A DNA stretch of 64,000 nucleotides from a virus (taxonomy: Duplodnaviria > Caudoviricetes): the IMG/VR virus record IMGVR_UViG_3300009540_000001, positions 108,375 through 172,374 of that record. One strand, 5' to 3'. Of this stretch, positions 1,385 to 63,247 are shown piece after piece (position 1 is the first letter of the stretch; every line of letters starts with the position of its first letter). Under the pieces are notes generated by a model, which was not told where the DNA came from, ran no database searches, and worked only from the letters and a program-made list of their open reading frames with translations. A program made the translations under genes and the position numbers.

Positions 1385-1409
1385 GGACGAAAGTTTACGG
1401 CGTAAGGAC

Positions 1410-1595
1410 TCAGCCCAGGAAGTACGCCGGCAGCGTCCCCGTCGGGGGCTCGCCCTGGCGGTACTCCTGCGTCCCGCCGTTGTTGGCGGTCCATAGGACG
1501 CCGAGCTCGACCTCGGAGCGCTGCCCGCCGTTGTCGATCTGCTCTTGCGCGGTCTGCACGAGGGCCGCGCGGGTGTCGATGCTGAAGGTTGCCAT
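1410..1595 (-). CDS. Small hypothetical virion-module protein
   Basis: 61 aa ORF with AGGAG SD, collinear with tail genes. Confidence 0.6.
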   Translation of the reverse strand: MATFSIDTRAALVQTAQEQIDNGGQRSEVELGVLWTANNGGTQEYRQGEPPTGTLPAYFLG

Positions 1596-1604
1596 GGGTT
1601 ACTC

Positions 1605-2714
1605 CTACCGAGAGATCTTCACGCCGCCCGTCCCCGTCACGTCATCGAGGTTGACGCGCACGAGGATGTTGTCGAGCGCGACCCAGCTTACGCCGTCTCG
1701 GTCTACGCCCATGCGGCCGAGGTCCCAGTTCTCCGTGTTCCACCGCCACGCGTTCGAGCGCCCGTAGATGCCGCCGTCTGGCGCGGCCAAGACGTTGCGC
1801 CGCACGTACTCCCCAGCGATGCCGCGTATACGCCCGCCGAGAAGGTCGTGACCGAGGGCGCCAACGAGAGGGTACAGACCGTACCCTGCTTGGTTGTAAG
1901 TCGGCACCGTGGGAACCATTCGATGCGCTCCCGACGATCCCGGTTGCCCCGCGAATGTGTACCCCTCGGCCGGGGTGATGATCTTGTCCTCGTCCGCCAG
2001 TTCGGCCAGCGTAAACGAGGACCCTGCGAACACGACCCCGTTGTTCGGGGTGACGGCGACGCGGTTCCCGAGCATGGAGTCCCACATCAGGGACAAACCC
2101 CCTGCGGGCGGGGCGGCACCGGCTGTCCACAGCTTCATGTACAAGTACGGTGCAGTGGTGTCGCCGTTGACGCCGATGATCAACCGGGAGGACGTCGAGT
2201 ACAGCGTGGGGACGGCCCAACCGATAGGGCTCACGTTCGAGCCGCTCCCCAACAGGATGATCTCCGTACTCCCAGGGAGCGGAGCGGGTTGTCTGTTTGC
2301 GGTGGCGGTTGTCCCGTCGAAGCCCCCCGAAGAGTACTTGATACGCAATTCGGGAGAGACGTTCGAGATGATCTGAATCGCGAGCTCTCCCGACAGCCCG
2401 CCGGGACGCTTGAGCGTGAAGTGCGGGCGGGCGTTGTAAAAACTTCGAGGTCTTGCTGGGGTGTTGTTCTGCTGGGGGTCGCCGTACGTCCCGAGAAGCG
2501 CGTACAGGCCGTCGAGGGTGTCCAAGTTGAACACATCCCCGGACGCCAAAACCTGTGCGTCCCCATCGCCACTGCACCCCACGGTGTAACCGTTTGAACA
2601 TGCGATGCTCTTCAGCGCGAGGATCGCTTGCGCGACGTTGTACTTGGACCGCAGTACGTTGCCGACAAAGTTCGCCGGGGCTGTAAGCGTGGATCGGTGA
2701 CTTAGAGCTGCCAT
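1605..2714 (-). CDS. Putative tail-associated protein; paralogue of 2722-3906
   Basis: Shared motifs IKYSSGGFDGTTAT / VKFSKGGFANGTAT and MWDSML / MWDSLD. Confidence 0.65.
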   Translation of the reverse strand: MAALSHRSTLTAPANFVGNVLRSKYNVAQAILALKSIACSNGYTVGCSGDGDAQVLASGDVFNLDTLDGLYALLGTYGDPQQNNTPARPRSFYNARPHFTLKRPGGLSGELAIQIISNVSPELRIKYSSGGFDGTTATANRQPAPLPGSTEIILLGSGSNVSPIGWAVPTLYSTSSRLIIGVNGDTTAPYLYMKLWTAGAAPPAGGLSLMWDSMLGNRVAVTPNNGVVFAGSSFTLAELADEDKIITPAEGYTFAGQPGSSGAHRMVPTVPTYNQAGYGLYPLVGALGHDLLGGRIRGIAGEYVRRNVLAAPDGGIYGRSNAWRWNTENWDLGRMGVDRDGVSWVALDNILVRVNLDDVTGTGGVKISR

Positions 2715-2721
2715 GGTCTCC

Positions 2722-3906: not shown

Positions 3907-3915
3907 GGGGTCTCT

Positions 3916-6900
3916 TTACGCCGTAACGGCGAGGGTGCCACGGTACATGACGGCCTGGGTCGCTGCGTTCGTGGGGGTCACGCGGAGCTGGAGGACGTCG
4001 CCATCGGTGAGCTGTCCTGCGATGTCGTCTGAAGTCTTGTGCTCACCGTTCGCGTCGGTGATCGTCAAGAAGTTATTCACGCCGTTCAAGTTCGTGAACG
4101 CCGTCCATACGCCCGCGACGAGCTTGTAGAGGCGCACTTCCACGGCGTTCGCGCCGTCCGTGCTCGCGCCCGTCACACGGAGCTTGACGGTCGTACCCAC
4201 GTGGTCCGACGCGTTCCAAGCTCCGCCGCCGATGACAGCTTCAGAGGTGTCCGCGAGGGTGGTGACCTTGAGACCGTGCAGGAGGGGTGCGTACGTCGGG
4301 GCGCCCGCAGTCACCGAGAAGCCGAAGCCTCCGACGACGAGGTTGTCTTGCACACCGCCGAAGTCGAACGCCTTGAACACGAAGGCATTGTCGGCTTGGA
4401 GCGTGAGTCCCGTGAGGGAACCCCTGATCCGCTCGCCCGCAAACGGGGCAATGGTGATCGTCTGCTTGAACGAGGGCCCCGCGTGAACGACGGTGACTTT
4501 CCGCCCCGTCGTCTCGCTCACCACGCTCGCGAGCGTGACGGTGAACGAGGCTCCCGAGAGCGGAAGAACGACCGCGAGCGTCGTCTGACGGCTGAGCGTA
4601 GCCGCGCCGGTCACGATCTGAATGACGTCGTCGTCGCTGACGCCGTAGCCTCCGTAGGCGATCAAGCCGAGGTTCGTACGGTGCCCGTTCGTCAAACCGT
4701 CGAGGATCGCCGGGCCAAACAGCATGATGCCGCCGCCCGTCGTGGAGTCGAACCCGTACGTGGGCGAGGCGGTCTCAACGGTGTAGCGGCAACCGGGCTT
4801 GCGAAGGAACACGCCCAAGTTGGCCGCGTTCACGAACGCAACGCCGTTGACCGTTTGCTGGTGCCCCATGCTGTGCTCGATGGTCGAGCCCGCACCGTTT
4901 ACAGTTTGCTTACCGTAGGAGTACCCGCCTTCAATAACGAGAATGCCCGCATTCTCGACCAGCACTACGTCGCGGTTCTTTGTCGTCGTGGCGCTCCCGA
5001 GAACGCAGTCACGCGCAAAGACGATGCCACTGCCAGCGCTCAACCCCACATACGTCGCCTGCGTGGGTACGAGCACGCACTGTTCCAGGGTCACACCGGC
5101 CGCCCCTGTGCCGCTGATCCGCAGGCAGTCACCCGCCGTCGCGTTGCCCGTGAACTTCACTCGGCGAAGCTGTGCGTTGCGGATGGTGTTCGAGGTGGCG
5201 ATCGTGAGCCCGCGCGTGTTCGTCACGCTCTGGTTGTCGATCGTCAGGTCTTGCCAGACGCACGCGAGGGTTGCATCGGCCGCGTCCATGGCGAGCCCGG
5301 TGACGGTCGTGATGATCGTCTCCTCCGCACGCCCCGCGTACCCCATCACCGTGAGACCCTGCTTGAGCAGGATGTTGTCCCAGGTGTACGCGCCCGGCGC
5401 GACCAACATGGCCTTCGGGTTCGAGATCGAGATCCCGTCCGTGACCATCTGCGCGTACGCCGCAGCCGGGGTCGCGTACTGCGGGCTCGAGCCCGCAGGG
5501 CCCGAAGCTGCGGGGCCTACGAGGTACACCGGCAGCGTGTACGAGGCCGGGGCCGCTGCTGTGGTCTTCGACGCGAGAATGATCCACTTGTCGTCGTGAG
5601 CTGCGAACTCGTACGCGTCGTTCCACTTGAAGACCGTGGAGTTGAGCGTGGCGTCGTAGTCGATACCTGCGCTCGCGTGCGCCGCGAGCGTCAGGTTCTG
5701 CGTGTAGGTGCCCCCCGTGTACTTCACCCGCAGGCGGCGCTCCTCGCGCCAGCTCGCCGGGTTCGGCATCGTCACCGTGAAGGTGGTGGGCGAAGACGGG
5801 ACCACCAGCGCCAACGTCGTCGCGTCTGCGATCGTCGCCGTGCCGGTGATGGTCTGCACGCGCTCGGGGTGCGTGAGGTAGTACCCGTCGTAGGTGATGC
5901 CGGCAGCGGTCTGGTACCGGGTCGTAGCGTCTGCATCGAGGGCGTACGCGCCATGCGTGTACACCGAGCCCGAAGTTCCCGTGCTGAACAGGAAGTTCGA
6001 GTTGGCGTCCATTCGGAACTTGTGCCCGCCTTGCAAGGCGACGGTCGAGCCGTTCTCGATCTCGAACAAGCTCGTCTCGATGAAGACGGGCCCTACGAGG
6101 AAGTCGGAATAGCCGAAGACGTTGACCCCAACCCCCAAGCTCAGGTTGGACGTGTTGGTCAACGTCATGGAGCCGATGATGTGGTCGGGCGGACCCGACT
6201 CAGCGTTTACCTCCGCAGGTACCGTGACGACGACATCCACGCTGTCGTCCAGACGCATCGCACGGCCTGTCGAACCGGCGATGTTGCCCCCGGCGCGAAC
6301 CAGCCCGCTCCACAGAATCTCGACGGGGCCGGTGGCATTCAGCCCGTCGCCGCTCACGCCGCCCGTTGTCGTGCAGTTTACCGCGTAGATAAAGCTGTCG
6401 TTCTGGAGCAGCGAGCCATCCACCGCGAAGCCGTGCGAGCCTGCGACGTTGCCGCCGTAGAAGTTGCAGTTTGTGAACCGCAGCGAGAAGCCGTCGATCG
6501 ACTGGTTGTTGAACCCCCCTACGGTCGCTCCCGGAGGGTACACGCCGCAGTTCGACAAGCCCGCTGTCGTGGAAGTCGTGAGCGTTGTGACCGAACCGAT
6601 GATCGACTGCGCGCTCGCGCTCGGGTTCACACCGACCAGAAAACAGCCGTCCAACAGAGTAACGTCTTCGACGAACTCACCGACGAAGAAGCCCACGCGC
6701 GGTGCGCCCGAATTCGCGCCGTCCGCGATCATCGCCGCCTGCATCGCCGTAAGCGTCGCGTACTGCGGGTTGGTGCCTCCCGGACCCATCCCGGCTGCGC
6801 CCGCGACGTACAGCGACATTCCGCCGTCGGTGATCGGCTTCCACGCCGAACCCGTGTAGTACTCGAAACGGGCCGTGGTGGTGTTGTAGATAAGCAGCGA

Positions 6901-8061: not shown

Positions 8062-8087
8062 CGAGGCAAGATTACGGGGTAAAGAAA

Positions 8088-8117: not shown

Positions 8118-8128
8118 CCCTTTACGAC

Positions 8129-16124: not shown

Positions 16125-16200
16125 GTGCACCTCCGAGGGCTTGTACCCGGAAGTGCGCGGCGTTTACGGAGTAAAGAGAGCCCCCCGGCTCTCTCGTCTC

Positions 16201-18653: not shown

Positions 18654-18853
18654 GGATCTACGCCTTCCTCGTAGCGTTTCTGGACGCGGTATCCGAACGT
18701 GAAGTCGCTGCTGCTCCCTCCCTGCGTGTCACCGTTCTGAACCATGCCCCACCCGTCGCCCCAGCCATCGCCTCCCGACGTGTTGTACTGCGGGCCGACG
18801 CATCCCAGCTGGTCAGGGTCTACGCGGTAAAGGTCGCGCGCGTTGTGCCTCAT
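18650..18853 (-). CDS. GDG/YEE family peptide (cluster B)
   Basis: QYNTSGGDGWGDGWG...RYEEG. Confidence 0.75.
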   Translation of the reverse strand: MRHNARDLYRVDPDQLGCVGPQYNTSGGDGWGDGWGMVQNGDTQGGSSSDFTFGYRVQKRYEEGVDP

Positions 18854-20605: not shown

Positions 20606-21079
20606 TCACGGCGCCCACCACGCAGGCGGCTTCCGATGATGCGCCCACCGCGCGAACGCACTCTTGTCCTTCAGATAGAAGGTTCGATACGCCGCGACGG
20701 CGTCAGGTCCGCGATAGGCCTCGGGCATCGTCTGCACGAACGGCGTGCGCCGTACTTGTGTAAACACGAGTTCGGGCGCCCGGACCTTTACGGCGTGAAG
20801 AACCTGGCGCGCCGCATGAACACCCAAGAAGCGCAGGGTGTACTCGTCACACAGCGCGAAGCCGTGGGCGAGCGCCCACTCGAAGTTGCCTCGCGACGCG
20901 CCTACCCACTTGGTAGCGGGATGGCCGGTGTGCGAAGGCTTGTAGCCGACGTCGAGCCCCTGGGAGCGTACGACCGTCGAGAGCATCTGCGCCGTCTCCG
21001 TGGGCATCTTTACGACGTGTTGGTCGCAGGCCATGCGGGCGGCGGTGACGGGATGTACGTGAAGTACGAAGAGGTTCAT
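20606..21079 (-). CDS. Pyrimidine dimer DNA glycosylase (endonuclease V)-like protein
   Basis: MNLFVL...CDQHVVKMPTETAQMLST...HP..KW...QTMP...AYRTFY...K..FARW. Confidence 0.8.
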   Translation of the reverse strand: MNLFVLHVHPVTAARMACDQHVVKMPTETAQMLSTVVRSQGLDVGYKPSHTGHPATKWVGASRGNFEWALAHGFALCDEYTLRFLGVHAARQVLHAVKVRAPELVFTQVRRTPFVQTMPEAYRGPDAVAAYRTFYLKDKSAFARWAHHRKPPAWWAP

Positions 21080-23787: not shown

Positions 23788-24375
23788 ATGGGCGTGGTAA
23801 TCCGTCTGCTCGCCGTCCTTCTCGTCCTGCTGCTCAGCGCCTGCGAACCGCCCCCTTCGCTCCCCTCGACGGGGCGCACCATCCGCGTCGCCCTCGGCCC
23901 TGACCCCTCCGGTCTCACCGGGTGGCGTCCCGAGCATCGCGCCGCGTTCCTTCGTGCCCTCGCGTCGCTGCGCGCCACGGGCGACACCTGGCTCGAGAGC
24001 GCTGTCGGCGACGCCGACGTCGTGGTCGAACCCTTCGACGCGGGGGCCCGCTGCTCGCACGCAGGGGAGTACTCGCCGGGCGAGCGCCGCGTGCGCATCG
24101 ACTACGCATGCGTCCCGGGCGACGAGAGGCTCGCGTACGCCATGGTGCACGAGCTGCTGCACTACCTGACGTGGATCAACGCGCGCTGGGTGGGGCACAT
24201 CTGCGTGCAGCCCGGCGACGCGACGGACTGCACAGCGCTCGTACGTGGCGAGGCGGTGCTCAACCCTGTGATGCCGGGGCAGTTCGACGCGAACGGGGAG
24301 CCGCTCGGGCCGCCCGACGCGACGCTGCGCCGCGCAGACGTCGAGTTGGTGCGGGCACTAGGGCGTACGCCGTAA
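23788..24375 (+). CDS. Lipoprotein zinc metallopeptidase
   Basis: Lipobox LLSAC; HELLH motif. Confidence 0.7.
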   Translation: MGVVIRLLAVLLVLLLSACEPPPSLPSTGRTIRVALGPDPSGLTGWRPEHRAAFLRALASLRATGDTWLESAVGDADVVVEPFDAGARCSHAGEYSPGERRVRIDYACVPGDERLAYAMVHELLHYLTWINARWVGHICVQPGDATDCTALVRGEAVLNPVMPGQFDANGEPLGPPDATLRRADVELVRALGRTP

Positions 24376-24384
24376 ACTTCTCGC

Positions 24385-26266: not shown

Positions 26267-26755
26267 ATGTTCAAAGTAGACAACGACAACGTCGAGTGCG
26301 AATCCGCCAAGATCAACCAGGGCCTCGAAGTGGGCCAGCAGGTCACCGTCGGGGGCTGCTCGCTCTCGCTCGGGTTCAAGGGCACGAGCGTCGACGCCGA
26401 GTGGGCCGACGTCCTCTCGCAAGAAGTCCCCGCTGGGCTCGCCGAGAACCTGCTCCTTCAGGTCGTCGCGTACGAGCCCGCCACGGGCGACGCCGCCGCC
26501 ATGACCTTCAACGGCCTCGTCATCAGCCACCCGAGCGGGCTCTCGATCATGCCCTCGGACATGATGAACTCGCTCGACAAGCGCATCAACACCCCGGGCG
26601 CCGCTGACTGGGCGTTCCGCGCGGTGATCGCGCCGGACGTGACGCCGGACACCACGCCCCCGACCCGGAACATCAAGCTCCAGGTCAAGGGCGAGCTGAA
26701 CAAGACCATCAAGTGGGCGATCTCGGTCCGCGCGTCGCTGGCGCTGAACGAGTAA
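26267..26755 (+). CDS. Stand-alone paralogue of the 24385 C-terminal domain
   Basis: ATGDAA...PGAADW...LQVKGELNKTIKWAIS vs ATGDTA...PGAAAW...LLVIGEAGKNIKWSIS. Confidence 0.7.
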   Translation: MFKVDNDNVECESAKINQGLEVGQQVTVGGCSLSLGFKGTSVDAEWADVLSQEVPAGLAENLLLQVVAYEPATGDAAAMTFNGLVISHPSGLSIMPSDMMNSLDKRINTPGAADWAFRAVIAPDVTPDTTPPTRNIKLQVKGELNKTIKWAISVRASLALNE

Positions 26756-26797
26756 CTTACGGCGTAAAGAAAGCGGGGCGGTTCGCCGCCCCTGCTC

Positions 26798-27956: not shown

Positions 27957-28235
27957 TCATCCCTCCCTCCCCTTCGCTCTTTCTTTCGCCCTCGCCTTCC
28001 ACGCCCTCTGCGCCACTCGCTGCATCTCGAGGTGCGCCTCGCAGCGCGTCTTACCCGGTAAAGGCGGCGCAGCGCAGTCCAGGCAGCTGTTCGCTAACCT
28101 CCTGTTATCTCTGTACTTTTTACAGTTCGCCGCGTGGATCGGCTTGCATGCCGTGCAGTACGCAGCGGCGTCGGCGTGCGGCGTCGCGCAACGCACGCAG
28201 GGTTTCATGTCTTCGGCTCGAGACGCAGGTTGCAT
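27957..28235 (-). CDS. Small Cys-rich zinc-binding protein
   Basis: CVRC, CTAC, CLDC, CEAH; basic tail; GGAGG SD. Confidence 0.65.
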   Translation of the reverse strand: MQPASRAEDMKPCVRCATPHADAAAYCTACKPIHAANCKKYRDNRRLANSCLDCAAPPLPGKTRCEAHLEMQRVAQRAWKARAKERAKGREG

Positions 28236-30506: not shown

Positions 30507-31622
30507 ATGCCGCTCTCTTCGTTCAGCTTGCCCTTCGGCCAAGGGCTCGGCCATGCCGCGACCGAGCTCGCGCACCTCGGGCCTGCGGCGAAGACAGCGC
30601 CGGCGTTCGCCCACATGGCAGGGGGACACAACATCGCACGCGACGCGGCGACGGGGGCAGGGCACTTGAAGGCGAGGCCGCAGGCAGCAGCGCCTGCGGC
30701 TCCCCAGCGAATTCCCACGCAGATCACGCCGGCCTGGCCGCGCCCCGCGATCGACCGCAACCAGCTCGCGGCGCATCCCGACGCTGGCGAGGTCAACAGC
30801 CTCATCCCCAACTACCTCGAGACGCAGCGCCGGTTGGGGGGTGTTGAGCGCGGGTACGAGAAGCGCCTCTCGCTCACCCCGGATCAAGCCAACCGACTTG
30901 ACGCCGTAAAGCAACATAGCAAGTCCCTCGAGAACGAGCTGATGCAGCGCTCCCCCGATCCGGAGGGAACCCTGAACCAGATCGCGGTGCGGGACAAGGT
31001 CCACGTCGGACGCGACGGGCTCAGCCCCAAGGCCCGGCAAACGCTGCTGGCGCAAGCCGCAGCGCCCCGCCGCACCCCGAGCATCAACGCGCCGCCGACG
31101 TCGTTCAGCCTCGATGCGTACAAACGCCGCGCAGCGATTCACGGGGAGCACGAAGCGACGCGCAGCATCGCTGAGCTGATCGGGACGGAGACCGCGAGGA
31201 ATCTGAACATCCCCCCACCCATTATGCCCCACGTTCCTGCGGGAGCTAAAAAAGTCGGAGCCTATATGCCCACCTTCCGTAAGTACGCCAACCCCCAACC
31301 TCTGTCCGGCGTCCTTCGGCACCTGGCCGAATCCGCCCACAGCAACCCCGGCCGCGCCGACGCCATGATCGCCGGTGGCAACAAGGCCATCATTCACGGC
31401 ATCATCGGCGCGCTTCTCGGCACCGCCGGCGGCGCCATCGCCGCGCGCCCCGGGGACGAAGACCACGGCGCTTTACGCGGTGCACTCTACGGCGGCGCGA
31501 CCGGCGCCGCGCTCGGCGGGTTGACGGGGTACAACCAGGCGATGAAGACCCCGGTGAACCCGTACCGCTACAACGCTCTTCGGGCCTCGGGCGACGCCCT
31601 GCGCGGGGCGCTTGCAGCGTGA
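30507..31622 (+). CDS. Ala-rich protein with C-terminal glycine zipper (putative internal virion protein)
   Basis: GIIGALLGTAGGAI...GALYGGATGAALGG. Confidence 0.6.
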   Translation: MPLSSFSLPFGQGLGHAATELAHLGPAAKTAPAFAHMAGGHNIARDAATGAGHLKARPQAAAPAAPQRIPTQITPAWPRPAIDRNQLAAHPDAGEVNSLIPNYLETQRRLGGVERGYEKRLSLTPDQANRLDAVKQHSKSLENELMQRSPDPEGTLNQIAVRDKVHVGRDGLSPKARQTLLAQAAAPRRTPSINAPPTSFSLDAYKRRAAIHGEHEATRSIAELIGTETARNLNIPPPIMPHVPAGAKKVGAYMPTFRKYANPQPLSGVLRHLAESAHSNPGRADAMIAGGNKAIIHGIIGALLGTAGGAIAARPGDEDHGALRGALYGGATGAALGGLTGYNQAMKTPVNPYRYNALRASGDALRGALAA

Positions 31623-35374: not shown

Positions 35375-35580
35375 GTCTGATACTCCTCGCGCACGTCCTC
35401 GTCGTCCCCGTCGCCGTCCCCGTACCCAGGGCCGTCTCCGAACGCGGGCCCGAGAATGCCGTCGCCGTACGCCGTAAAGCTCCACCAAGGGTCGAGGCCT
35501 GTGCCGTCGCCGGGGGCGACGTATGAGCCGTACTCGTTGAGATATTGGACTTCGTCGAGGATGAGGCGAACAACGCTCAC
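35371..35580 (-). CDS. GDG family peptide (cluster D)
   Basis: APGDGTG..YGDG..FGDGPGYGDGDGD..EEY. Confidence 0.75.
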   Translation of the reverse strand: MSVVRLILDEVQYLNEYGSYVAPGDGTGLDPWWSFTAYGDGILGPAFGDGPGYGDGDGDDEDVREEYQT

Positions 35581-37087: not shown

Positions 37088-37106
37088 CTTTTACCTCGTA
37101 AAGGCC

Positions 37107-40954: not shown

Positions 40955-41571
40955 GTCCTCGCCTGGTATCGCACCAGCTCCACACTCGCAGCCGAGAACG
41001 CCCCCGACACCCTCGGGTCGTTGAAGTAGTCGGCGTCGTAGACGACGCGCTTGACCCGCGCGGCGAGGAGCACCTTCGCGCAGTTCCAGCAGGGGTAGGT
41101 GTTCGTGTAGCAGACGGAGTCTTTCGAGCTCACGCCGTAAAGCCCCGCCTGAAGCACCGAGTTCTGCTCGGCGTGAATGGTGCGCAGGCACGTCTCCCGC
41201 CCGTCGAGTACGCCGATGTCGTGCCCGACGTCGTCGCAGTGCGGCGCCCCCGGCGCCGAACCGTTGTAGCCGGTGGCGATGATGCGGGAGTCGTGCACGA
41301 GGATGGCTCCGACGTGCTTGCGGTCGCACGTAGAGCGACTTGAAGTCTCTCGGACGATCGCCATGAAGTAGTCGACCCAGGCCTTGCGGGTGGGAGGGGC
41401 GAGGTGCGTGGCGCTATGCCGAAACTCCGCCATCGACATGCCCTGGATACCCGGGGCGTCATCGTACTTGAGCAAGACGATGACGGCGGCGTTGTAGGTC
41501 GCGTAGTCGACGGCCACAGCCCGTCGACCGTCGTTGAATGCGTACGTGTGATTGAGCAGCGGTTCGGTCAC
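40951..41571 (-). CDS. dCMP deaminase (ComEB family) with N-terminal extension
   Basis: RSTC...VGA...TGYNG...HAEQN...PCWNC. Confidence 0.9.
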   Translation of the reverse strand: MTEPLLNHTYAFNDGRRAVAVDYATYNAAVIVLLKYDDAPGIQGMSMAEFRHSATHLAPPTRKAWVDYFMAIVRETSSRSTCDRKHVGAILVHDSRIIATGYNGSAPGAPHCDDVGHDIGVLDGRETCLRTIHAEQNSVLQAGLYGVSSKDSVCYTNTYPCWNCAKVLLAARVKRVVYDADYFNDPRVSGAFSAASVELVRYQART

Positions 41572-42845: not shown

Positions 42846-42895
42846 GGGATCCTCCTGTTTGTTACGCCCTCGACGCCGTACGGCGTAAAGGAATT

Positions 42896-44039: not shown

Positions 44040-44653
44040 GGCCCGGGAATGGCGCCGTCCACCGCCAGCGCCATCTCGTCGACGTCGGCGCAGATGACCC
44101 GAACCTCCGTCGGGCGCCCCCACATCACCGCCTCCTCCCCCTCGCGCTCCGCGTCGTCGTTCACGACCTTCTTGACCGCCGCGTCGATCGCTTTGTTGGA
44201 CGGCACCCCCCCGTAGGCGCGCAGGTACACCGTGCGCTCGAACGTCACCGGGCGTTGCACGCGCACCTTTACGGCGTAGACAACGCCGGGCGACTTCACG
44301 AGGCCCGCGAGGGCCTTCACCTCTTCGAGCGTTTCGAGCGGCACGTCGTCGTAGTCGCCGTCCGCGTGGCACGGGTAGACCCGCAACCAGTACGTAGGCT
44401 CTTCGCCGTCATCCCCGTGCCAGCAGACCAGCTTGGCCTCCTCGATGGGGATCTCTTCTGCCTCCTCCCCGGGCTCGTCTGGCGCCGTGTACGGCGCCGT
44501 TCGCCCCGCTTCGATCGGGTAGAACCCGAACTCGGCGGGGATCTCCTGACCGTCGCGCAGCTTCGCCAGACGCCTCAGAAGCGTCGGGGTGAGGGGGAAG
44601 GCGACGGAGACCTCGTGCATGAGGAAGGGAACGATGATCCAGGGGGACTTCAC
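44036..44653 (-). CDS. Hypothetical protein
   Basis: GTGA-coupled start (VKSPWII...). Confidence 0.6.
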   Translation of the reverse strand: MKSPWIIVPFLMHEVSVAFPLTPTLLRRLAKLRDGQEIPAEFGFYPIEAGRTAPYTAPDEPGEEAEEIPIEEAKLVCWHGDDGEEPTYWLRVYPCHADGDYDDVPLETLEEVKALAGLVKSPGVVYAVKVRVQRPVTFERTVYLRAYGGVPSNKAIDAAVKKVVNDDAEREGEEAVMWGRPTEVRVICADVDEMALAVDGAIPGP

Positions 44654-45376: not shown

Positions 45377-45697
45377 ATGCGCGCTACATGGTCCTTCTAC
45401 GCAGCAGAAGTGGATCGGGCGGACGTCGAACCCTCCGGCTCCCGCGACTTCTCGCGTCTCCTGCGCGCCCGCCTGCGCCTCGCGATGTACGAGCGCGCCG
45501 TGCACGCGCAGCTGAAGATCCACCCGAACAAGCATCCGGAGCAGACGCCGCTCGCGACGGCCTTGGTCGTCTTGAAGATCGCGCGGCGCACGCACATGCG
45601 GACGATCCACCCGCAGTGGTACAAGCAGCTACTTCAGACGGTGAGAGAGATGAAGAAGGTCCCCGTCGACCTCGACGCCCCTTCGTTTACGGAGTAA
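45377..45697 (+). CDS. Hypothetical protein
   Basis: TACACT box 6 nt before ATG. Confidence 0.55.
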   Translation: MRATWSFYAAEVDRADVEPSGSRDFSRLLRARLRLAMYERAVHAQLKIHPNKHPEQTPLATALVVLKIARRTHMRTIHPQWYKQLLQTVREMKKVPVDLDAPSFTE

Positions 45698-45705
45698 ACC
45701 CCTCG

Positions 45706-48191: not shown

Positions 48192-48739
48192 GCACGATCC
48201 TTCTGGACATGGACGGCGTCCTCGCCAACTTCGACCAAGGCCACGTCGACGCTTGCATCCGTGCGGGCATCCCACGTGCTCTGCACGGCGAAGACCGCGC
48301 GGAGTGGGACCTGCTCTCCACGGTTCCACGGGAAGACCGCGCGCGGCTCCTGCGCCTCTGGCACGCTCCGGGTTTCTTTCGCGCACTCTACCCGATGGAC
48401 GGCGCAGTCGACGGGGCCCGGACTTTACGCCGTCAAGGTCATGAGGTCTTCATCTGCACCGCGCCGCTGCTCAACCACGCGACCTGCGCGGCCGAGAAGA
48501 TCGAGTGGGTTCGCGCGCACCTCGGCGACGACTTCGCCGCCAGGGTGATCATCACCCGTGACAAGACGCTCATTCACGGCGACTACCTCGTCGACGACCG
48601 CCCTAACATCCACGGAGTTCACACGCCCACATGGAAACACCTCCTGTTCGAGGCACCCTGCAACCGCAACGACCCGCGCGGAACCTGGAACTGGAGGAGG
48701 CTCCGGCAGGAGTTCACGACTCCTCGAGCGCCGCGATAG
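48188..48739 (+). CDS. 5'(3')-deoxyribonucleotidase (HAD, NT5C family)
   Basis: DMDGVLANF...EKIEW...DKTLIHGDYLVDD. Confidence 0.9.
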   Translation: MSTILLDMDGVLANFDQGHVDACIRAGIPRALHGEDRAEWDLLSTVPREDRARLLRLWHAPGFFRALYPMDGAVDGARTLRRQGHEVFICTAPLLNHATCAAEKIEWVRAHLGDDFAARVIITRDKTLIHGDYLVDDRPNIHGVHTPTWKHLLFEAPCNRNDPRGTWNWRRLRQEFTTPRAPR

Positions 48740-49073: not shown

Positions 49074-49796
49074 ATGGACGTCATCGGCTTCGCCGGCCCC
49101 ATGGGCTCGGGCAAAGACACCGCTGCCTCGAGCATCGCACGCCGTAAAGCGACGGTCATCGTCGCCCTCGCCGACCCGCTGAAGCGCATGGCGACGGAGT
49201 GGTTCGGGATTCCCCACGACAACGTCTGGGGCACGCTCGAGCAGAAGAACGCGCCTCTCGCGACGCCCATCGACGCCCAGGCCCTCGCCCACGCGAAGAC
49301 CTTCGCGGACAAGCTGGTGGCGCTCACGCGGGGCGAGAAGAGTGAGGCCGAAGTGCTCGCGGCGATGGACGCGGCGTTCCTCCCGCACCTGCCCATCCGC
49401 ACCGCGCGTAAACTCATGCAGGAAATCGGAACAGGCCTGGGGAGGTCTCTCTCCCCTGACCTGTGGCTGATGTCCCTGCACGACGTCCTCCGCGCCCTGC
49501 GGCACGGCGCGGCGTACACGCGGCAGGGCGGCATAGACCTCCAGCGCGGCGCGCTGCACACGTACGACGTGACGGCCGTGCCGGACGTCCGCTTTCCGAA
49601 CGAGGCGAAATACATCAAGGAGGTGCTCGGAGGGAGTGTCGTCTGGATCGAGAGCGGCGCGCGCGTCGCTCGGCCCGAGGGCTTCGCGCATGCGTCGGAG
49701 CCGACGTACGAAGCGCTCGCGCCGTGGGTGACGCACGTAGTGAAGAACGAGACCACCGTCGAGGACTTCGAAGAAGCCCTCCGGGTCGCCGTCTGA
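49074..49796 (+). CDS. Deoxynucleoside monophosphate kinase
   Basis: GPMGSGKDT, ADPLK, RKLMQEIGT, DVRFPNE, HASE. Confidence 0.9.
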   Translation: MDVIGFAGPMGSGKDTAASSIARRKATVIVALADPLKRMATEWFGIPHDNVWGTLEQKNAPLATPIDAQALAHAKTFADKLVALTRGEKSEAEVLAAMDAAFLPHLPIRTARKLMQEIGTGLGRSLSPDLWLMSLHDVLRALRHGAAYTRQGGIDLQRGALHTYDVTAVPDVRFPNEAKYIKEVLGGSVVWIESGARVARPEGFAHASEPTYEALAPWVTHVVKNETTVEDFEEALRVAV

Positions 49797-50387: not shown

Positions 50388-51838
50388 CGCTCGTCTTTCT
50401 TCCTCAACGGCCCTCGATCACTCGCCTCCTGCATCGCCCCCATCAACTCCTCTCCGAGCCGACCCTTCTCCCGGGCCGTCTGCGCCATGTAGCGCTCGAT
50501 GCCCAGGTTCGAGTCGCCCAAGAGTCGCCCCAGCAGCGACGTCGGCGGCTTCGAATAGTACTTCATCACGCGCACGTTTCTCTGGTCTTCCGGGAGGTGC
50601 GCGTGGCTGAGGTAGCGAATTCCTCGCCCCTCAACCTGCCCCGTCCGCCCTTCGTTCCAGTGCGGTTCGACCTCATGGATGGCGCGCGTGCCCTTCAGGT
50701 CGAGGCCTTCCGCGCCCGACGCCGAGATCAGCAAGTTCGGGATCTTCCCCTCGTTGTACGCCGCAACCATGCGGGCCTTCTCGGCCTTCGACACCCCACC
50801 GTGAAACACGGAGTGGGGGATGCCGCGTTCCGTGAGGCCGCGCGCGATCGGCTCGAGCCCGCCTTCGAGGTAGTTCGAATAGATGACGGCCCGGTGTGCG
50901 GCGTTGGCCTCGCGCGCCTTCACCAGATCCTCGACGACACGCTTCAGCTTCGGCGAGTGCTCGAGCTCGGTCGACAGCGCCACTCGGTGGTCGTACGGCC
51001 TCGGCGTGTTCGACACCTGGCGCAGCCCGGCCTCGAAGGAGTTCAGGCTTTTCGACTCCGCCTTCGACAGCGGTAGCCCTGCCTGGACTTTACGCTGTAA
51101 AAGCCACGGCATCTTCCCTTCGAGGAACCGGTACGTGTCCCACTGCTTGGGGGACATCTCGACGTCGATCTCCTCGTCGATGCGGCTGGGGAAGTCAGGG
51201 CCCCCGCTCTTGTGGACGTCGACGTAGCCTGCCGCAGCGTTGACCAGCTCCCCGCGATTGATAACCTTTGCCCGCTCCGTCGCCTTCGCGCCGAGGAGCC
51301 GGTTCAGAAGCCCCGGCTGAATCTTCTCCTTGCCGATGTACCGGTGGATGAACGCATCGGGGTTGCCCGGCACGATCTCCTTCCCGGCCGCGTAGTTCAG
51401 CAGCGCCCCGAGGTCTCGAGGGTGGTTGTACACGGGCGTCCCGGTGAGCAGCAGCCGCGCCTTCGCCTGCGAGGCAGGGAGCGCGACGTTCGAGGCGATG
51501 CCCGTCCCGGCGTTGCGCGCGCGCTGCGCCTCGTCGAGAACGACGAGCCCGTCCTTGCGCACGTCGTTGTCCCGCACCGCCCTTTCGTACGACCGAATCC
51601 GGATGCCCTTGGGCCGCTTGTCGAGGTGCTTGTCGAGCTCCTTGTCGTAGTTCGACACGAGCGGAGCAGGGACGATGACCTCCGCCGGCAGCCCGAGCGC
51701 ATCCGCCGCCTCGATGCTCGTGAGGCTCTTTTCGCTGCCCACCCCGTGCGCGACGAGCACGCCGCCCGAGGCCTTCAGCTTGTCGATGACGCGCTGCTGG
51801 TGGGGGAGCAAGGGGGTGACGAGATCGGCGAGCTTCAC
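50384..51838 (-). CDS. SNF2-like SF2 helicase with non-canonical Walker A
   Basis: LLPHQ, HGVGSEKS, DEAQ, LTGTP, EGLDL, QVEGRGIR. Confidence 0.85.
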   Translation of the reverse strand: MKLADLVTPLLPHQQRVIDKLKASGGVLVAHGVGSEKSLTSIEAADALGLPAEVIVPAPLVSNYDKELDKHLDKRPKGIRIRSYERAVRDNDVRKDGLVVLDEAQRARNAGTGIASNVALPASQAKARLLLTGTPVYNHPRDLGALLNYAAGKEIVPGNPDAFIHRYIGKEKIQPGLLNRLLGAKATERAKVINRGELVNAAAGYVDVHKSGGPDFPSRIDEEIDVEMSPKQWDTYRFLEGKMPWLLQRKVQAGLPLSKAESKSLNSFEAGLRQVSNTPRPYDHRVALSTELEHSPKLKRVVEDLVKAREANAAHRAVIYSNYLEGGLEPIARGLTERGIPHSVFHGGVSKAEKARMVAAYNEGKIPNLLISASGAEGLDLKGTRAIHEVEPHWNEGRTGQVEGRGIRYLSHAHLPEDQRNVRVMKYYSKPPTSLLGRLLGDSNLGIERYMAQTAREKGRLGEELMGAMQEASDRGPLRKKDER

Positions 51839-53976: not shown

Positions 53977-54577
53977 CCCGCCCTCCCTTCTTTACGCCGT
54001 ACGACTCCGCGTCGCCGGTCTTGCTCAGCAGCGGCTTCACCAGCAACGCTCCCGGGTCCACCCCGGCAGGCGTGGTGACGATGAGGGTCCAGACGGTGCG
54101 CAACGGCCCCGCCACCGCGCGCAGATCAACCGCGCCCTGTTCGGGGAGAAGGTCGTACACGTCGCTGCCGCAGGCCGGGCAACGCCGAGGAGGCTTGTCT
54201 TCCGTGGTCGCCCACGAGACCTGGCAGCCCCGGCACGTGGCGAAGTACAGCTCCGAGCGGGTCCACTCGATCGGGTAAACCGACGCGAGCGCAACCGGCG
54301 CCGCTTGGGCCGCTTTCGCAGCCCTGGTCGTCTTGGAGTCCTTCGGAGACGCAGGCGCCTCGAGCGGCGCCCACGCCGCCGCGTCCTCGAGCCCGTGGGC
54401 CGAGCACGCGTAGTACGCGACCTCCCCGTCCCCACCGAGGACGGCTTGGCTGATCTTGCCGCGCTTGCACGAGTGGCAAGTGTTCGTGACCTCGCAAGGG
54501 CACGGGCGGCGGTAGCGGGTGTTGTCCGCGTCCTTGAAGACGCGGTACTCGACCTTGCAGGTGGGGCAGGTGCTCAC
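53966..54577 (-). CDS. Multi zinc-ribbon protein
   Basis: Several CxxC motifs. Confidence 0.6.
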   Translation of the reverse strand: MSTCPTCKVEYRVFKDADNTRYRRPCPCEVTNTCHSCKRGKISQAVLGGDGEVAYYACSAHGLEDAAAWAPLEAPASPKDSKTTRAAKAAQAAPVALASVYPIEWTRSELYFATCRGCQVSWATTEDKPPRRCPACGSDVYDLLPEQGAVDLRAVAGPLRTVWTLIVTTPAGVDPGALLVKPLLSKTGDAESYGVKKGGRDGS

Positions 54578-55092: not shown

Positions 55093-55953
55093 CTACACCT
55101 TGACGTATGTCGGCCGCGCTTCGGTCGACCCATCGGATAGAACTTCAGTCGTCCAGTCGAGGAACGCCTCGGGACACGCGATGCGCATCTGCTGGTACAC
55201 CGGGTAACACGCACGCCGAATCGCGACGTCGGCGTGACGCGAGCAGCGCATCGTGAGGATGTGCCGCCACGAGCGCAGGTTGCCCGTGAACACGATCGGA
55301 GCTTCGACCCAGTTAGGGAGACATCTCCTGGCGGTGCTCTGAATCCGCTTGCGATGCTCGGTCTTCGACTCCCCCTCCCGCTGCGGGTACTTCTCCATGT
55401 ACGCCTTGATCCAACGCGAGTAGCGGTGGAAGTCGTACTCGAAGTCGATCAGCGCCATACCTACGAGCGTGGACGAGCCCTGCGCCTCGTACGGCATGCA
55501 GAAGCGCAGCGCGTCGACGCCGACGTAGCGCTGGCTCACCTGGCTGACCGCGATGCCCTGGCGATGCCGCACGAGCTCGTGCGTCACGGCGCGATCTACG
55601 CCGTAAAGCAGGAACGTGTAGCTCGAGTGCTCGAGGATCGAGCCATGACTCTGCTTCATGATGTTGTCGAAGTACTTGTCGGCCTCCTTCGGCTTGGTGC
55701 GCTTCTCGCCCAGGGCCAGGTAGCAGACCTGACCGGCGAACATCGTCAACGCCCCGCCCTCGGAGATCAGGCCCTCCTCGAGCGTGTCGACCATGTCTTG
55801 GCCGTACTGCGTAGGCGACGTCACTTCGTCGTTGCCCATGCCCTTGAGAAAGGGGCGGAGGGCCGACGGGTCGAACGTGGTCTGCGCGATGAGCAAGGCC
55901 CCGGGCTCGGTGAGGTAGCGGACGGGGCCGGAGACGTGGATCACAGGCTTCAT
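55093..55953 (-). CDS. thyX: FAD-dependent thymidylate synthase
   Basis: HGSILEH; ELVRHR...SQVSQRY; NLRSWRH. Confidence 0.92.
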   Translation of the reverse strand: MKPVIHVSGPVRYLTEPGALLIAQTTFDPSALRPFLKGMGNDEVTSPTQYGQDMVDTLEEGLISEGGALTMFAGQVCYLALGEKRTKPKEADKYFDNIMKQSHGSILEHSSYTFLLYGVDRAVTHELVRHRQGIAVSQVSQRYVGVDALRFCMPYEAQGSSTLVGMALIDFEYDFHRYSRWIKAYMEKYPQREGESKTEHRKRIQSTARRCLPNWVEAPIVFTGNLRSWRHILTMRCSRHADVAIRRACYPVYQQMRIACPEAFLDWTTEVLSDGSTEARPTYVKV

Positions 55954-56939: not shown

Positions 56940-57215
56940 TCACCACCTCATCGGACTCCTGAGCACCGCCGCCTCCACGTGCGGAGGCAGCCGGCCCAAC
57001 ATCTGAAACGCCCGGACGTACGCCGTGGCTTTACGCGGTACACCCAAGGCCTTGAGCACGCCCTCGAGCCGTTGAGGCGTGAGCGTTCGCTCACCGCGCT
57101 CGACGTCGCTGAGGAAAGGGATCGAGACGCCCACGGCCGAAGCCACGGCGTTCAGCGTCAGGCCCTTGTCGTTCCGTACGGTGCGCAGGTGTTGCCCGAG
57201 CTTGCTCGCGCTCAT
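56940..57215 (-). CDS. XRE-family helix-turn-helix regulator
   Basis: LRTVRNDKGLTLNAVASAVGVSIPFLSDVERG. Confidence 0.85.
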   Translation of the reverse strand: MSASKLGQHLRTVRNDKGLTLNAVASAVGVSIPFLSDVERGERTLTPQRLEGVLKALGVPRKATAYVRAFQMLGRLPPHVEAAVLRSPMRW

Positions 57216-57550: not shown

Positions 57551-57580
57551 GCTACCCGACTTTAACCGCCAGGGGAATGG

Positions 57581-60822: not shown

Positions 60823-60835
60823 GCTCTCTCCTGGA

Positions 60836-61213
60836 TCATTGCTCGCATGCGTGCAGCCTCCAGCCCCAGGCGGACCGGGACTTCACCCCGAGCAGCGCGA
60901 GTGCTTCTTTCCTATCGAACATGCCTGGATCGAGGTTGAGATTCGGGATCAGCAGCCCACCACCCTTGTCGCCATCAACGCACGCGTGCGTTGTGTCGAG
61001 CACGTAGATCAGGAGGGAGCCGCTGTCCCATCCCGTATGTTCGACGCCCACACGGAAGGGCGCGAGGAGCACCGAAGTGTGCCTGTCGAAGTTGTCCTCG
61101 TCGTAGCTCGCGCCCGTGAGCTTCTTGATGCGGGCGCGCAAGGCTTCGTCCTTCTCCTCGGTCCACGGCACGTGAATGCCGTAGAAGAGGTAGGCGGTGG
61201 CGCGGTTACTCAT
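60836..61213 (-). CDS. Hypothetical protein
   Basis: 125 aa; coupled to the helicase gene. Confidence 0.6.
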   Translation of the reverse strand: MSNRATAYLFYGIHVPWTEEKDEALRARIKKLTGASYDEDNFDRHTSVLLAPFRVGVEHTGWDSGSLLIYVLDTTHACVDGDKGGGLLIPNLNLDPGMFDRKEALALLGVKSRSAWGWRLHACEQ

Positions 61214-62705
61214 CCTCTCCCTCCTTCGCCTTGAAGAACCCCACCGACGCCGCCCACGACTTCCCCGCCGACCCGTCCGACTTGGGGAGCTGCACGAGGT
61301 ACAGCTCCGCCTTGGCCCGCGTCGCCGCGACGTAGTAGCAGTTGGCGCCGTCTGACCCCTTCGGGTTGAACGTCGTCTCGAGCTGCCACACGCGGTCGAA
61401 CTCGAGCCCCTTCGACTTGTGCGTGCTCATGCACGGGATCGTGCCGCGCGTGACGTCGTCGTCGTTGAAGAGGTTGATGATCTTCTGCTGGACCTTTCCA
61501 AGGTCCGAGCAGTTCGAGCTCAACGCCCGCAACGCATCGAGGTTGTCCCTCAGTTCTTCGGCCTTGTCTTCCTTGCGCGCGGCCTCGAGCTTCTCGCCCT
61601 CTTCCGACACGTAGTCCGTCAGCGCGGTGAGCATCGACGGGATGGAGTCCCCGAACTGCGAGCCGATCGTCACCAGCTTCGTGAGCTGCGCGCCGATGTC
61701 CTTGCCGACGATGCGCGCTCGCTTGCCGCTCGCGATGAGCTCGAGGGCGACCTTCGTGAGCGCGGCGTTCGTACGGGAGATCACGACGTCTCCCTCGTCC
61801 ACGCGCTTGTAGAACTCCTTGCCGCCGACGCTGTCGACGACGCCGCGCGGCGCACCAGGCCCTGACTCGAAGTCAGGAACGAGAGGGTTCACGAGCCGCA
61901 CGACCTCGGTAGGGCAGCGGTACGTGATGGACAGAGGCAAGGTCTTCGCCCCCGTCTCGATGATGATCTTGTCGATCGAGTCGGCCGACGCACCATTGAA
62001 GTGGTAGATCGCCTGCGCGGGATCGCCGACCGCGATGACCCGGCCCCCGGGTCGGATCGCGTTCATCACGAGCCGAAGCTGCGCAGGCGAGAGGTCCTGC
62101 GCCTCGTCGACGATGACGACGTCGAAGTTCCCCGTCGAGAGGTTGAGCACCGCAGGGATGTACACCTGCTCGGTGAACGAGATGGACGTGTGGTCCGTAC
62201 GCAGCGACCACTCGAGCGTCTGCTGCACCCACCGAATCCACAGAGGCTTCTCTGCGCTCGCGGCCGGGCGCAGGTCGTACTCGTACATGCAGTTGTCGAT
62301 CGCCTCCTCGGACGTCGACAGCGTCACCATGCACATGGTGACGAGCTTCGCGACCTCGCCCCGGGCGTCCTTGTAGACGTCCGGAATGAGCTTGCGCACG
62401 TAGTCCTGGACGCGCCATCGGTCGACCTCGAGCGTGCGGTTGACGCGCTTGATGGCCGTGCCGAAGCCCATCTGGTTGAGACCCTTGACCGTGACGTGCG
62501 GGCTCGTGCGGAGCCGCTCCGCGAGGTCGTCTCGGATCTTGTTGTTGAACGCGCAGACGAGGACTCGGCGAGGCTTGAGCCGCGCGCACAACTCACGAAT
62601 CGTCGTCGACTTGCCGGTGCCGGCGCGCGCGATGACGACGAGGTTGTCAGGCTTCGTCTTCGCGAACTCGAAGATGTCGTTCTGTAGATGCGACCACTCG
62701 GTCAT
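61206..62705 (-). CDS. UvrD/Rep-family SF1 DNA helicase
   Basis: ARAGTGKST, DEAQD, VGDPAQAIY, YRCP, HKSKGLEF, YVAATRAK. Confidence 0.92.
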   Translation of the reverse strand: MTEWSHLQNDIFEFAKTKPDNLVVIARAGTGKSTTIRELCARLKPRRVLVCAFNNKIRDDLAERLRTSPHVTVKGLNQMGFGTAIKRVNRTLEVDRWRVQDYVRKLIPDVYKDARGEVAKLVTMCMVTLSTSEEAIDNCMYEYDLRPAASAEKPLWIRWVQQTLEWSLRTDHTSISFTEQVYIPAVLNLSTGNFDVVIVDEAQDLSPAQLRLVMNAIRPGGRVIAVGDPAQAIYHFNGASADSIDKIIIETGAKTLPLSITYRCPTEVVRLVNPLVPDFESGPGAPRGVVDSVGGKEFYKRVDEGDVVISRTNAALTKVALELIASGKRARIVGKDIGAQLTKLVTIGSQFGDSIPSMLTALTDYVSEEGEKLEAARKEDKAEELRDNLDALRALSSNCSDLGKVQQKIINLFNDDDVTRGTIPCMSTHKSKGLEFDRVWQLETTFNPKGSDGANCYYVAATRAKAELYLVQLPKSDGSAGKSWAASVGFFKAKEGEDE

Positions 62706-63247
62706 CGACCGTCCTCCGGGGCAGGCGTCGCCGCCCGCTTCAACTCGGCCAGCAGCTCGACCCGTGCAACCGGGTCCAGGTGCAGCACCATGTGTCTGTA
62801 CTCCGTAAAGAACTCGCCCTCCTTCGAGAGGAGCGTGATGCCCGCCGAGATCACGGAGAGCTGCTCGCCGTTGGCGAACTTCGCCAGCGTCTCGATCTCC
62901 TTCGACAAGACCGACGTGAGCGCCGGGTCCTGCGCTCGCGCGCCGCGCAGCACTGCGTACAGCTCCGCGAAGACGCCGTTGTGCAGGTTGAAGAACTTGG
63001 TCCCGACGAACACGAAGTGCTCGACGAGGACCTCGCGCGAAGGCTTGAGCGCCTTGATCTCGTCGATGCCCTCATCGAGCGAGTGCAAGCAGTACGCGGT
63101 GTACGATCGGTTCAGCGTCGTGATGGCGGCCTGCATGCGAGAGAGGCGCGCAACGCGCTCCGCCTCGGTCAGCAGCGGGGCCCCGAGCGCGGTGAGAATG
63201 TCGTTGGCTGCGCGGCGGATGTTGTCTTTGTCTTCGTGGCTCTTCAT
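62702..63247 (-). CDS. Hypothetical protein
   Basis: 181 aa; coupled to the helicase gene. Confidence 0.6.
   Translation of the reverse strand: MKSHEDKDNIRRAANDILTALGAPLLTEAERVARLSRMQAAITTLNRSYTAYCLHSLDEGIDEIKALKPSREVLVEHFVFVGTKFFNLHNGVFAELYAVLRGARAQDPALTSVLSKEIETLAKFANGEQLSVISAGITLLSKEGEFFTEYRHMVLHLDPVARVELLAELKRAATPAPEDGR

Follow-up and report, generated by a model that had tools for sequence, protein, structure and literature searches.

The window analysed here is a stretch of 64,000 nucleotides (bases 108375-172374 of the 172,374-bp virus record IMGVR_UViG_3300009540_000001), taken from a tailed-phage genome that carries a lattice of about 100 short, evenly spaced dyad sites. These sites are predicted to be the binding sites of an orphan ParB-family protein encoded elsewhere in the same genome, a reading that is given a probability of roughly 0.55 and that draws on family membership of the protein, likeness of the sites to known operators, and co-occurrence of protein and lattice, all derived from sequence comparison. 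The initial annotation of the window had proposed that the sites serve a dimeric, genome-organising protein, and this is supported in outline.

The core ACGSCGTAAA occurs 25 times in the window, against a dinucleotide-shuffle mean of 0.12 (maximum 2), and the 25 copies listed in the initial annotation were all recovered at their positions. Across the whole record there are 61 copies and none of a reversed-pattern control. The conserved word is broader than first described and reads (T)AC-N3-GTAAAG with a G/C-rich spacer (mostly GCC, GGC, GCG or CGC). AC-N3-GTAAAG is found 101 times genome-wide and never with any other spacer length, and 101 of the 115 GTAAAG hexamers of the genome sit within it. 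A weight matrix built from the sites (cut-off 13 bits) returned 108 distinct sites in the genome, 35 of them scoring on both strands; 38 lie in the window, about one per 1.7 kb. Twelve of 13 variants listed earlier alongside the exact cores reach at least 13 bits, and the one at 6377 falls below. The window sites, with strand, setting and score, are as follows (window coordinates).

1393..1407 (+), intergenic, GTTTACGGCGTAAGG; 18.3 bits, exact core
3914..3928 (-), overlapping the 3' end of gene 3916-7722 (-); 21.8 bits, exact core
8070..8084 (+), intergenic, spacer GGG; 22.0 bits
9686..9700 (+), intergenic, spacer CGC; 20.3 bits
10111..10125 (-), weak site in a gene; 15.6 bits
10847..10861 (-), in gene 10730-11287 (-); 24.1 bits
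14258..14272 (-), in a gene; 22.4 bits, exact core
16162..16176 (+), intergenic, near-palindrome GTTTACGGAGTAAAG; 22.4 bits
17844..17858 (-), intergenic, start codon 14 nt on; 24.4 bits, exact core
18818..18832 (+), in a small gene; 20.4 bits
19750..19764 (+), in a gene, opposite strand; 21.8 bits, exact core
20786..20800 (-), in a gene, CTTTACGGCGTGAAG; 22.1 bits, exact core
21008..21022 (-), weaker site in the same gene as 20786..20800; 17.3 bits
23761..23775 (+), between two + strand genes, start codon 12 nt on; 24.4 bits, exact core
24363..24377 (+), supplying the TAA stop of gene 23788-24375; 15.0 bits, exact core
26755..26769 (+), intergenic; 23.1 bits, exact core
28049..28063 (+), intergenic, spacer CCG; 17.7 bits
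28273..28287 (-), at a gene edge; 21.1 bits, exact core
30897..30911 (+), in gene 30507-31622 (+), read LDAVK; 21.2 bits, exact core
31471..31485 (-), second site in gene 30507-31622 (+); 19.1 bits
33610..33624 (-), in a small gene; 22.1 bits, exact core
35465..35479 (+), in a small gene, opposite strand; 23.4 bits, exact core
37089..37103 (+), intergenic, TTTTACCTCGTAAAG; 19.1 bits
37693..37707 (+), intergenic; 24.7 bits, exact core
41128..41142 (+), in the dCMP deaminase gene 40951-41571 (-); 20.8 bits, exact core
42876..42890 (+), intergenic; 22.2 bits, exact core
44267..44281 (-), in a gene, read VYAVK; 22.4 bits, exact core
45685..45699 (-), at a gene end, near-palindrome GTTTACGGAGTAAAC; 14.6 bits
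47622..47636 (+), supplying the TAA stop of gene 47026-47634; 21.3 bits, exact core
48423..48437 (-), in a gene, opposite strand; 19.3 bits, exact core
49135..49149 (+), in the dNMP-kinase-like gene 49074-49796 (+); 19.5 bits, exact core
51088..51102 (-), in the helicase gene 50384-51838 (-); 17.5 bits
53101..53115 (+), intergenic; 19.7 bits, exact core
53990..54004 (-), in a gene; 23.0 bits, exact core
55594..55608 (+), in the ThyX gene 55093-55953 (-); 21.7 bits, exact core
57029..57043 (-), in the XRE-type helix-turn-helix (HTH) gene; 21.8 bits
59918..59932 (-), in a gene, read LDAVK; 22.6 bits, exact core
62796..62810 (+), in a gene, spacer TCC; 23.0 bits

Under a third-order Markov null, 4-5 hits were expected at 13-14 bits, against about 140 strand hits (108 distinct centres) observed. 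Permutation of synonymous codons within each gene gave a mean of 34.7 copies of the word against 101 observed. Because 29 of the permuted 34.7 are untouched intergenic or gene-edge sites, only about 6 genic sites are expected against the 72 observed. The enrichment therefore did not vanish under a higher-order Markov model or a codon model, the two nulls against which the initial annotation had proposed to hold it.

The two halves of the site are unequal. The right half, GTAAAG, is essentially fixed, and the left half consists of AC, then T at 70%, with weaker preferences beyond. TTTAC-N3-GTAAA is complete at only 8 sites of this genome, and both 3-base arms are perfect in none of the 61 exact-core sites. 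The perfectly palindromic 15-mer with which the sites had been introduced has no copy in the genome, so the site is not fully palindromic here; for CTTTAC-N3-GTAAAG, about 5 copies would be expected if the halves varied independently. The one-strong-half design is common to close relatives of the phage, and distant relatives have perfect palindromes. A hairpin or cruciform, as in N4-type promoters or single-strand initiation, was rejected, given that at most sites only AC/GT and about one T can pair.

Seventy-two of the 101 sites lie within genes, and 29 are intergenic or at gene edges, against approximately 7% non-coding DNA. Of the genic sites, 44 are on the coding strand and are mostly read [YHDN]-x-V-K; the other 28 are on the opposite strand, in all three phases. 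Some of the intergenic and gene-edge sites supply a TAA stop codon, and some stand 8-15 nt before a start codon. The sites are thus a selected feature of the DNA itself, occurring in more than one reading frame as well as between genes. Gaps between the 101 sites average 1.71 kb and reach 4.16 kb at most, with a coefficient of variation (CV) of 0.54; under random placement the CV is 0.99 and the largest gap 8.8 kb, and neither observed value was attained in 5000 simulations. With the positions taken as fixed, the strong half falls on either strand at random (49 runs vs 49.3 expected), and each strand alone behaves as a random thinning of the lattice. Relative to the local gene, 56 sites are co-oriented and 45 opposite. 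Random orientation combined with regular spacing indicates a feature that acts on double-stranded DNA whatever the direction, with density being what is kept. The regular spacing fits the genome-organising role proposed at the outset, and fits a self-marking role as well. Stoperator-like repression, which had been offered alongside it, was set aside, since orientation with respect to transcription is about random and relatives have palindromes.

Relatives of the phage were retrieved with part of its multisubunit RNA polymerase, which is encoded in two genes outside the window and is conserved in this two-gene form across a large uncultured clade.

Genome 67297-72183 (L004:7297-12183), + strand: beta fused to the N-terminal half of beta', 1628 amino acids
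Genome 73236-75035 (L004:13236-15035), + strand: separate beta'-C, 599 amino acids

Hundreds of uncultured relatives of the beta'-C protein were found, and many of their contigs measure 100-196 kb. Eighty IMG/VR loci were taken, and nine whole records (identified by G numbers) were read and scanned for palindromes without assuming any word.

G003, G004 and G023: TTAC-N3-GTAA, 28-36 copies, CV of gaps 0.39-0.45
G006: RTACGSCGTAY (TACGNCGTA), 101 copies, CV 0.54
G008: RTACGSCGTAY (TACGNCGTA), 90 copies, CV 0.53
G007: TCAC-N3-GTGA, 46 copies, CV 0.60
G017, G021 and G030: codon-periodic palindromes only, no lattice, CV 0.86-1.28

Three site types are therefore present in the clade, TTTAC-N3-GTAAA (type A), TTCAC-N3-GTGAA (type B) and RTACGSCGTAY (type C), and even spacing is kept in each. 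The majority of sites in G004 are perfect copies of TTTAC-N3-GTAAA. Just past the stop codon of beta'-C, the position of a site is kept while its type switches. Where the left half-site changes from T to C, the right half-site changes from A to G, and this coupled change argues for a dimeric protein; a dimeric DNA-binding protein, as first suggested, is still the best reading. Type A is found in relatives of 42% to 70% G+C and close relatives switch type; the breadth of G+C points to a reader of the word that is encoded by the phage and not by the host. A TCGA-N5-TCGA 'motif' in lattice-free relatives was discarded as codon periodicity in conserved proteins (CV ~1).

Individual sites were compared with 8 relatives (72-82% local DNA identity) over the 16 sites of the RNA-polymerase region. 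Five of the 16 are letter-perfect and in the same place in every relative aligned there, synonymous positions included, and the site at genome position 73885 is identical in 8 of 8 relatives down to a rare GTA codon. Conservation at synonymous positions in relatives, a check put forward in the initial annotation, is thus seen at these sites. Most of the remaining sites in the region are lineage-specific, one having been made by a single synonymous GTC-to-GTA change.

A comparison with cultured phages by blastn gave no match. The nearest cultured relatives by beta'-C are the Vibrio phages D181, D148 and D69 and the Salmonella phage Arash (29-31% identity), and no such lattice was found in 50 kb of Arash. 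In Arash, the RNA polymerase homologues are the most abundant virion proteins (PMC10585845).

About 37 genes are common to four diverse lattice genomes, and two of these encode DNA-binding domains, an XRE-type HTH protein and a ParB homologue. Their coordinates, and those of the gene adjoining parB, are given here.

Genome 60002-61081 (L004:2-1081), - strand, outside the window and 47 kb upstream of it: ParB/Noc/KorB-family gene, 359 amino acids
Genome 59191-59976 (L003:19191-19976), + strand, outside the window: sigma-70-like gene (region 2; PHROG sigma factor, 1.3e-20)
Window 56940..57215, - strand: XRE-family HTH gene, a rival binder (Pfam HTH_31, 2e-12)

The ParB homologue is a canonical member of its family. 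It matches Pfam HTH_ParB at 25.4 bits (cut-off 22.6), ParB_N at 1.7e-4 to 2.8e-6, just under the Pfam cut-off, and a PHROG of ParB-like partition proteins at 6.7e-18, and it is the sole ParB_N open reading frame (ORF) in the genome. When its profile was compared with solved structures, the best match was Noc (7ol9, 2.8e-27), followed by ParB (7bnr and 6t1f, ~1e-26) and KorB (8qa8, 1.7e-12). These alignments span the CTPase fold and the HTH, and those to Noc and ParB include the ...VQ... helix. Box II reads GRRRREAA in this phage, GERRWRAA in G004 and GRQRVRAA in G007; box III reads ENLQRENMSP (ENLQRENMSPWD), and ENxxR is present in the ParBs of 23 of 31 relatives. A ParB_N fold with box II and box III and a central ParB-type HTH, which are the features used to assign membership, are thus all present, and the N-terminus is disordered and Lys/Ala/Thr-rich. 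No ParA was detected in the genome by an AAA_31 search that was positive in 14 of 14 control genomes, and the ParA-binding motif LG[KR]GL is found in none of 31 ParBs. Given these two negatives, the protein is an orphan ParB and not part of a partition system; classical ParABS partition was rejected. The 'ParB-like' protein to which the initial annotation had pointed at window position 37783 gave no ParB signal, having no Pfam match, no ParB_N and a sole PHROG match to phrog_5931, of unknown function. The protein at 29497, another candidate binder, was dropped because no family was found for it in Pfam or PHROG.

The sigma-70-like gene directly adjoins parB in convergent orientation, and this adjacency is kept in all lattice genomes examined. 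Two PD-(D/E)XK nuclease genes flank parB in a conserved order (primase, nuclease, sigma, ParB, nuclease). Sites flank the gene as well, one 1-2 nt past its stop codon and one ~375 bp upstream; sites are similarly near parB in relatives, though in dense lattices this could be chance.

Presence of the candidate genes was compared across relatives by whole-record profile searches, which replaced a pattern-based IMG/VR retrieval that had yielded only 9 XRE and 7 ParB loci. Among 39 related records, ParB was detected in every clear-lattice record with a long enough contig. It was not found by this search in the complete genomes G017, G021 and G030 or in the 77-85% complete G029, G031 and G032, and all six are without lattice. 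When all 222 genes of the phage were profiled, only ParB and a 343-amino-acid protein occurred in five or more of the 6 lattice genomes and in 0 of 3 complete lattice-free genomes. The second of these is encoded outside the window.

Genome 91079-92110 (L005:11079-12110), + strand: 343-amino-acid protein of no known family, in the structural module just after the probable capsid gene

G021 and G030 retain the conserved gene neighbourhood, with the ParB slot empty. In G017, the slot (L159, G017:166241-169393) holds a divergent 449-amino-acid ORF with a faint ParB_N signal (3e-5), which may be a diverged or re-purposed ParB. Lattice-free records in which ParB is weak or missing occupy at least three separate positions on the beta'-C tree, so the link between ParB and lattice is not the product of a single shared loss. 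The recognition helix (S-x-G-x-V/I-S-Q) carries Gly at one position in 9 of 9 type-A ParBs and Ser or Ala there in 4 of 4 type-B ParBs, a suggestive covariation of an HTH position with site type.

By analogy with ParB-parS and with KorB and its operator OB, a ParB dimer would recognise the 13-bp TTTAC-GSC-GTAAA through its HTH, and in this genome it would read one strong GTAAAG half together with the AC core of the other half. After binding CTP (cytidine triphosphate), the dimer would form a closed clamp that moves off the site and slides, and repeated loading from sites ~1.6 kb apart could cover the whole phage chromosome. A lattice of this kind would mark, coat or condense the phage DNA; as a best guess, this would organise transcription, replication or packaging, or protect the DNA from host factors. 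A more tentative proposal, held with less confidence than the binding itself, concerns the large lytic-type clade with virion-style RNA polymerases as a whole. Here the orphan ParB CTP-clamp and its lattice might coat or condense the chromosome as a viral 'self' chromatin that organises or shields the DNA, with site word and recognition helix co-evolving and the system being lost together.

Several observations weigh against ParB as the binder. The half-sites are 3 bp apart, versus none in parS, a geometry unlike that of solved ParB-parS complexes, and the asymmetric site and missing perfect 15-mer are not predicted by a simple homodimer model. In this phage, Glu replaces the last Arg of box II, so that CTP binding or hydrolysis may be altered, and the structure model of the protein is of low confidence (predicted local distance difference test score, pLDDT, 61). 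Weak ParB-like matches (1e-7 to 1e-18) occur in G010, G026, G027 and G028, which have no type A, B or C lattice. The helix covariation is only suggestive because a further type-A genome, G035, has Ser and not Gly at the position, and because the ParB tree is consistent with vertical descent. Two other proteins also follow the lattice to some degree: the 343-amino-acid protein shares most of the ParB profile (5/6 lattice, 0/3 lattice-free), and the XRE-type HTH protein is likewise conserved in four lattice genomes.

The sites could instead be targets of another phage protein of unknown family. Such a protein might bind DNA, or it might be an enzyme that marks the chromosome at regular intervals by site-specific nicking or base modification, and ParB would be linked by ancestry only. 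This appears unlikely. Most genes of the phage have no family, the 343-amino-acid protein shares most of the profile, two PD-(D/E)XK nucleases flank parB, and the dCMP deaminase, ThyX and dNMP-kinase-like protein hint at unusual nucleotide chemistry. Against this, the 343-amino-acid protein is absent from the lattice genome G004 and has no DNA-binding signature, and the PD-(D/E)XK genes persist in lattice-free genomes. A family search of the genome found no Tet_JBP dioxygenase gene, and no methyltransferase was found among ~80 proteins scanned. Nicking systems such as that of T5 act on one strand, unlike these sites, which are distributed randomly over both. A ParB-activated thymine dioxygenase (PMC13229309) was rejected as a model, as there is no Tet_JBP gene here and that ParB class lacks an HTH.

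It is improbable that the sites are operators of the XRE-family HTH protein, acting as a small dimeric repressor that tunes or silences transcription from sites spread like stoperators and without orientation. XRE dimers typically bind 13-17-bp palindromes, full-length orthologues occur in G004, G006, G007 and G008, and one site lies within the XRE gene itself. Yet the lattice genomes G003 and G023-G025 have only weak partial matches to the generic HTH part (1e-6 to 1e-10), and the lattice-free G030, G028 and G010 match in the same weak way. The gene failed the presence/absence profile and tracks the lattice less well than ParB does, and most sites are genic and far from promoters.

A promoter or terminator element for the phage RNA polymerase and sigma-like factor is highly improbable and was rejected on the grounds of orientation, genic location and the absence of a second conserved element. 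TTTAC, as a half-site, looks like a -35 hexamer, the phage encodes both a two-gene multisubunit RNA polymerase and a sigma-70-like protein, and approximately 11 intergenic sites stand 8-15 nt before a co-oriented start codon. Orientation is nevertheless about random (56 to 45), 72/101 sites are genic, no conserved second element occurs within 20 bp on either side, relatives have perfect palindromes, and RNA polymerase and sigma persist in lattice-free relatives. Hardly credible is a word read by a host system, Chi-like (RecBCD/AddAB) or DNA-uptake-like, by which the phage would mimic host 'self': Chi and uptake sequences, too, are evenly spaced and strongly over-represented, but type A spans relatives of 42% to 70% G+C with presumably very different hosts, close relatives switch type, lattice loss tracks the loss of a phage gene, and the sites are dyad-symmetric, unlike Chi, which is orientation-dependent and 5-8 nt long.

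Returning to ParB as the predicted binder, the closest solved-structure match, Noc of Bacillus subtilis (7ol9, 7nfu), is likewise an orphan ParB paralogue without ParA that acts at dozens of dispersed palindromes (NBS). Noc binds ~70 sites in 4.2 Mb and attaches to the membrane by an N-terminal helix; the phage protein differs in its disordered Lys/Ala/Thr-rich N-terminus, and the phage site density is ~35 times higher. The type B half-site, TTCAC, is the canonical parS half-site. The matS/MatP system of E. coli also has a 13-bp palindrome with a 5-3-5-like layout, many copies and a DNA-organising role; it differs in being confined to the Ter macrodomain and in its ribbon-helix-helix binder, whereas the phage lattice covers the whole genome.

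In the site itself, the nearest parallel is the KorB operator of plasmid RK2, the 13-bp TTTAGC(G/C)GCTAAA (TTTAGCSGCTAAA), present in 12 copies on the 60-kb plasmid (PMC13768133). KorB loads at the operator, closes on CTP and slides (PMC13768133, PMC11790492). Each system has a ParB-family protein that combines an HTH with an N-terminal CTPase fold, and a 13-bp palindrome with a central G/C and TTTA...TAAA arms (TTTAGC-S-GCTAAA vs TTTAC-GSC-GTAAA). In both, many copies are spread over the whole replicon, also far from promoters, with positions conserved between distant relatives; a multi-copy 13-bp palindrome of this kind is found at 108 sites here and at 28-101 in relatives. The present replicon differs in being a large phage that encodes its own RNA polymerase and in having ~100 sites, one per 1.6 kb, that are mostly genic and regular. 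KorB is also a more distant match to the phage protein than Noc or ParB. No IncC/ParA was found in the phage, and no KorA/TrbA-like partner was identified, no search having been aimed at KorA/TrbA; the XRE protein is conceivable as a stand-in for such a clamp-locking co-repressor.

Among phages, Cluster O mycobacteriophages carry >30 copies of the 17-bp dyad TGTTCGG-N3-CCGAACA, the function of which was left open (PMC4351075, PMC6439249). A dimeric binder was predicted by the authors, and a ParB-like gene is present that was not linked to the repeat; parA is absent (PMC4351075). Shared with the present lattice are a genome-spread inverted repeat, a 3-bp spacer, a genic fraction (a third) and lack of orientation with transcription. 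The Cluster O word has a 7-3-7 layout, the phage group and host are unrelated, and the repeats are denser at one genome end and not even. Cluster A stoperators, too, are 13-bp-class words that number dozens per phage genome and are recognised by a single phage protein (putatively so for the present lattice), but they serve a prophage repressor, are asymmetric and point in the direction of transcription (PMC4351075), whereas the phage sites are randomly oriented and relatives have perfect palindromes. A 2025 survey described orphan ParBs as common, phages included, with roles unexplored (PMC12704722).

ParB-family clamps are known from chromosome and plasmid partition, nucleoid occlusion (Noc) and plasmid gene silencing (KorB). 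In a literature search, no account was found of a lytic-type phage with an evenly spaced ParB-type lattice over its whole genome. If the reading holds, the lattice would represent a new use of the ParB clamp, namely whole-genome coverage of a virus from ~100 even loading sites set through coding sequence, with spacing kept as the word changes. It would also explain the Cluster O dyad repeats and suggest a role for orphan phage ParBs that can be tested. The three site types, each with its cognate ParBs, would form a natural series for the evolution of ParB-family DNA specificity, and the lattice shows the strength of DNA-level constraint on synonymous sites in viral genes.

The record as a whole has 66% G+C and a CheckV completeness of 100%. 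It bears a 123-bp terminal repeat, short enough that it may be an assembly overlap. Its 222 genes, predicted with a codon-score gene caller written for this work, cover 92.7% of the genome, and few could be assigned to known families; a family A DNA polymerase, a primase-like protein, helicases and a terminase large subunit are among those that could. Three genes of nucleotide metabolism lie in the window.

Window 40951-41571, - strand: deoxycytidine monophosphate (dCMP) deaminase
Window 49074-49796, + strand: deoxynucleoside monophosphate (dNMP)-kinase-like protein of T4 gp1 type
Window 55093-55953, - strand: ThyX

Taken together, these three give a hint of a non-standard pyrimidine pool or a modified base. 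A phage transfer-messenger RNA was located at window 8990-9319 (-) with a full-length match to Rfam RF00023 (108.8 bits), and its tag peptide was predicted with ARAGORN as ANYNAFAAPLLAAA. A 93-nt tRNA-Glu(CTC) was called by ARAGORN at window 30178-30270 (-), inside or beside gene 29497-30363; it is missing from the Rfam gathering-threshold scan and may be a false call or an atypical tRNA. Outside the window, a 992-amino-acid core protein (genome 84827-87805, + strand; L005:4827-7805) gave weak Hint/intein and LAGLIDADG signals, which suggests that this conserved phage gene harbours an intein. The 21.8 kb surrounding the RNA polymerase genes (L019/L020) contain 26 copies of AG-N3-GAGCAG, probably a tandem peptide repeat within a gene.

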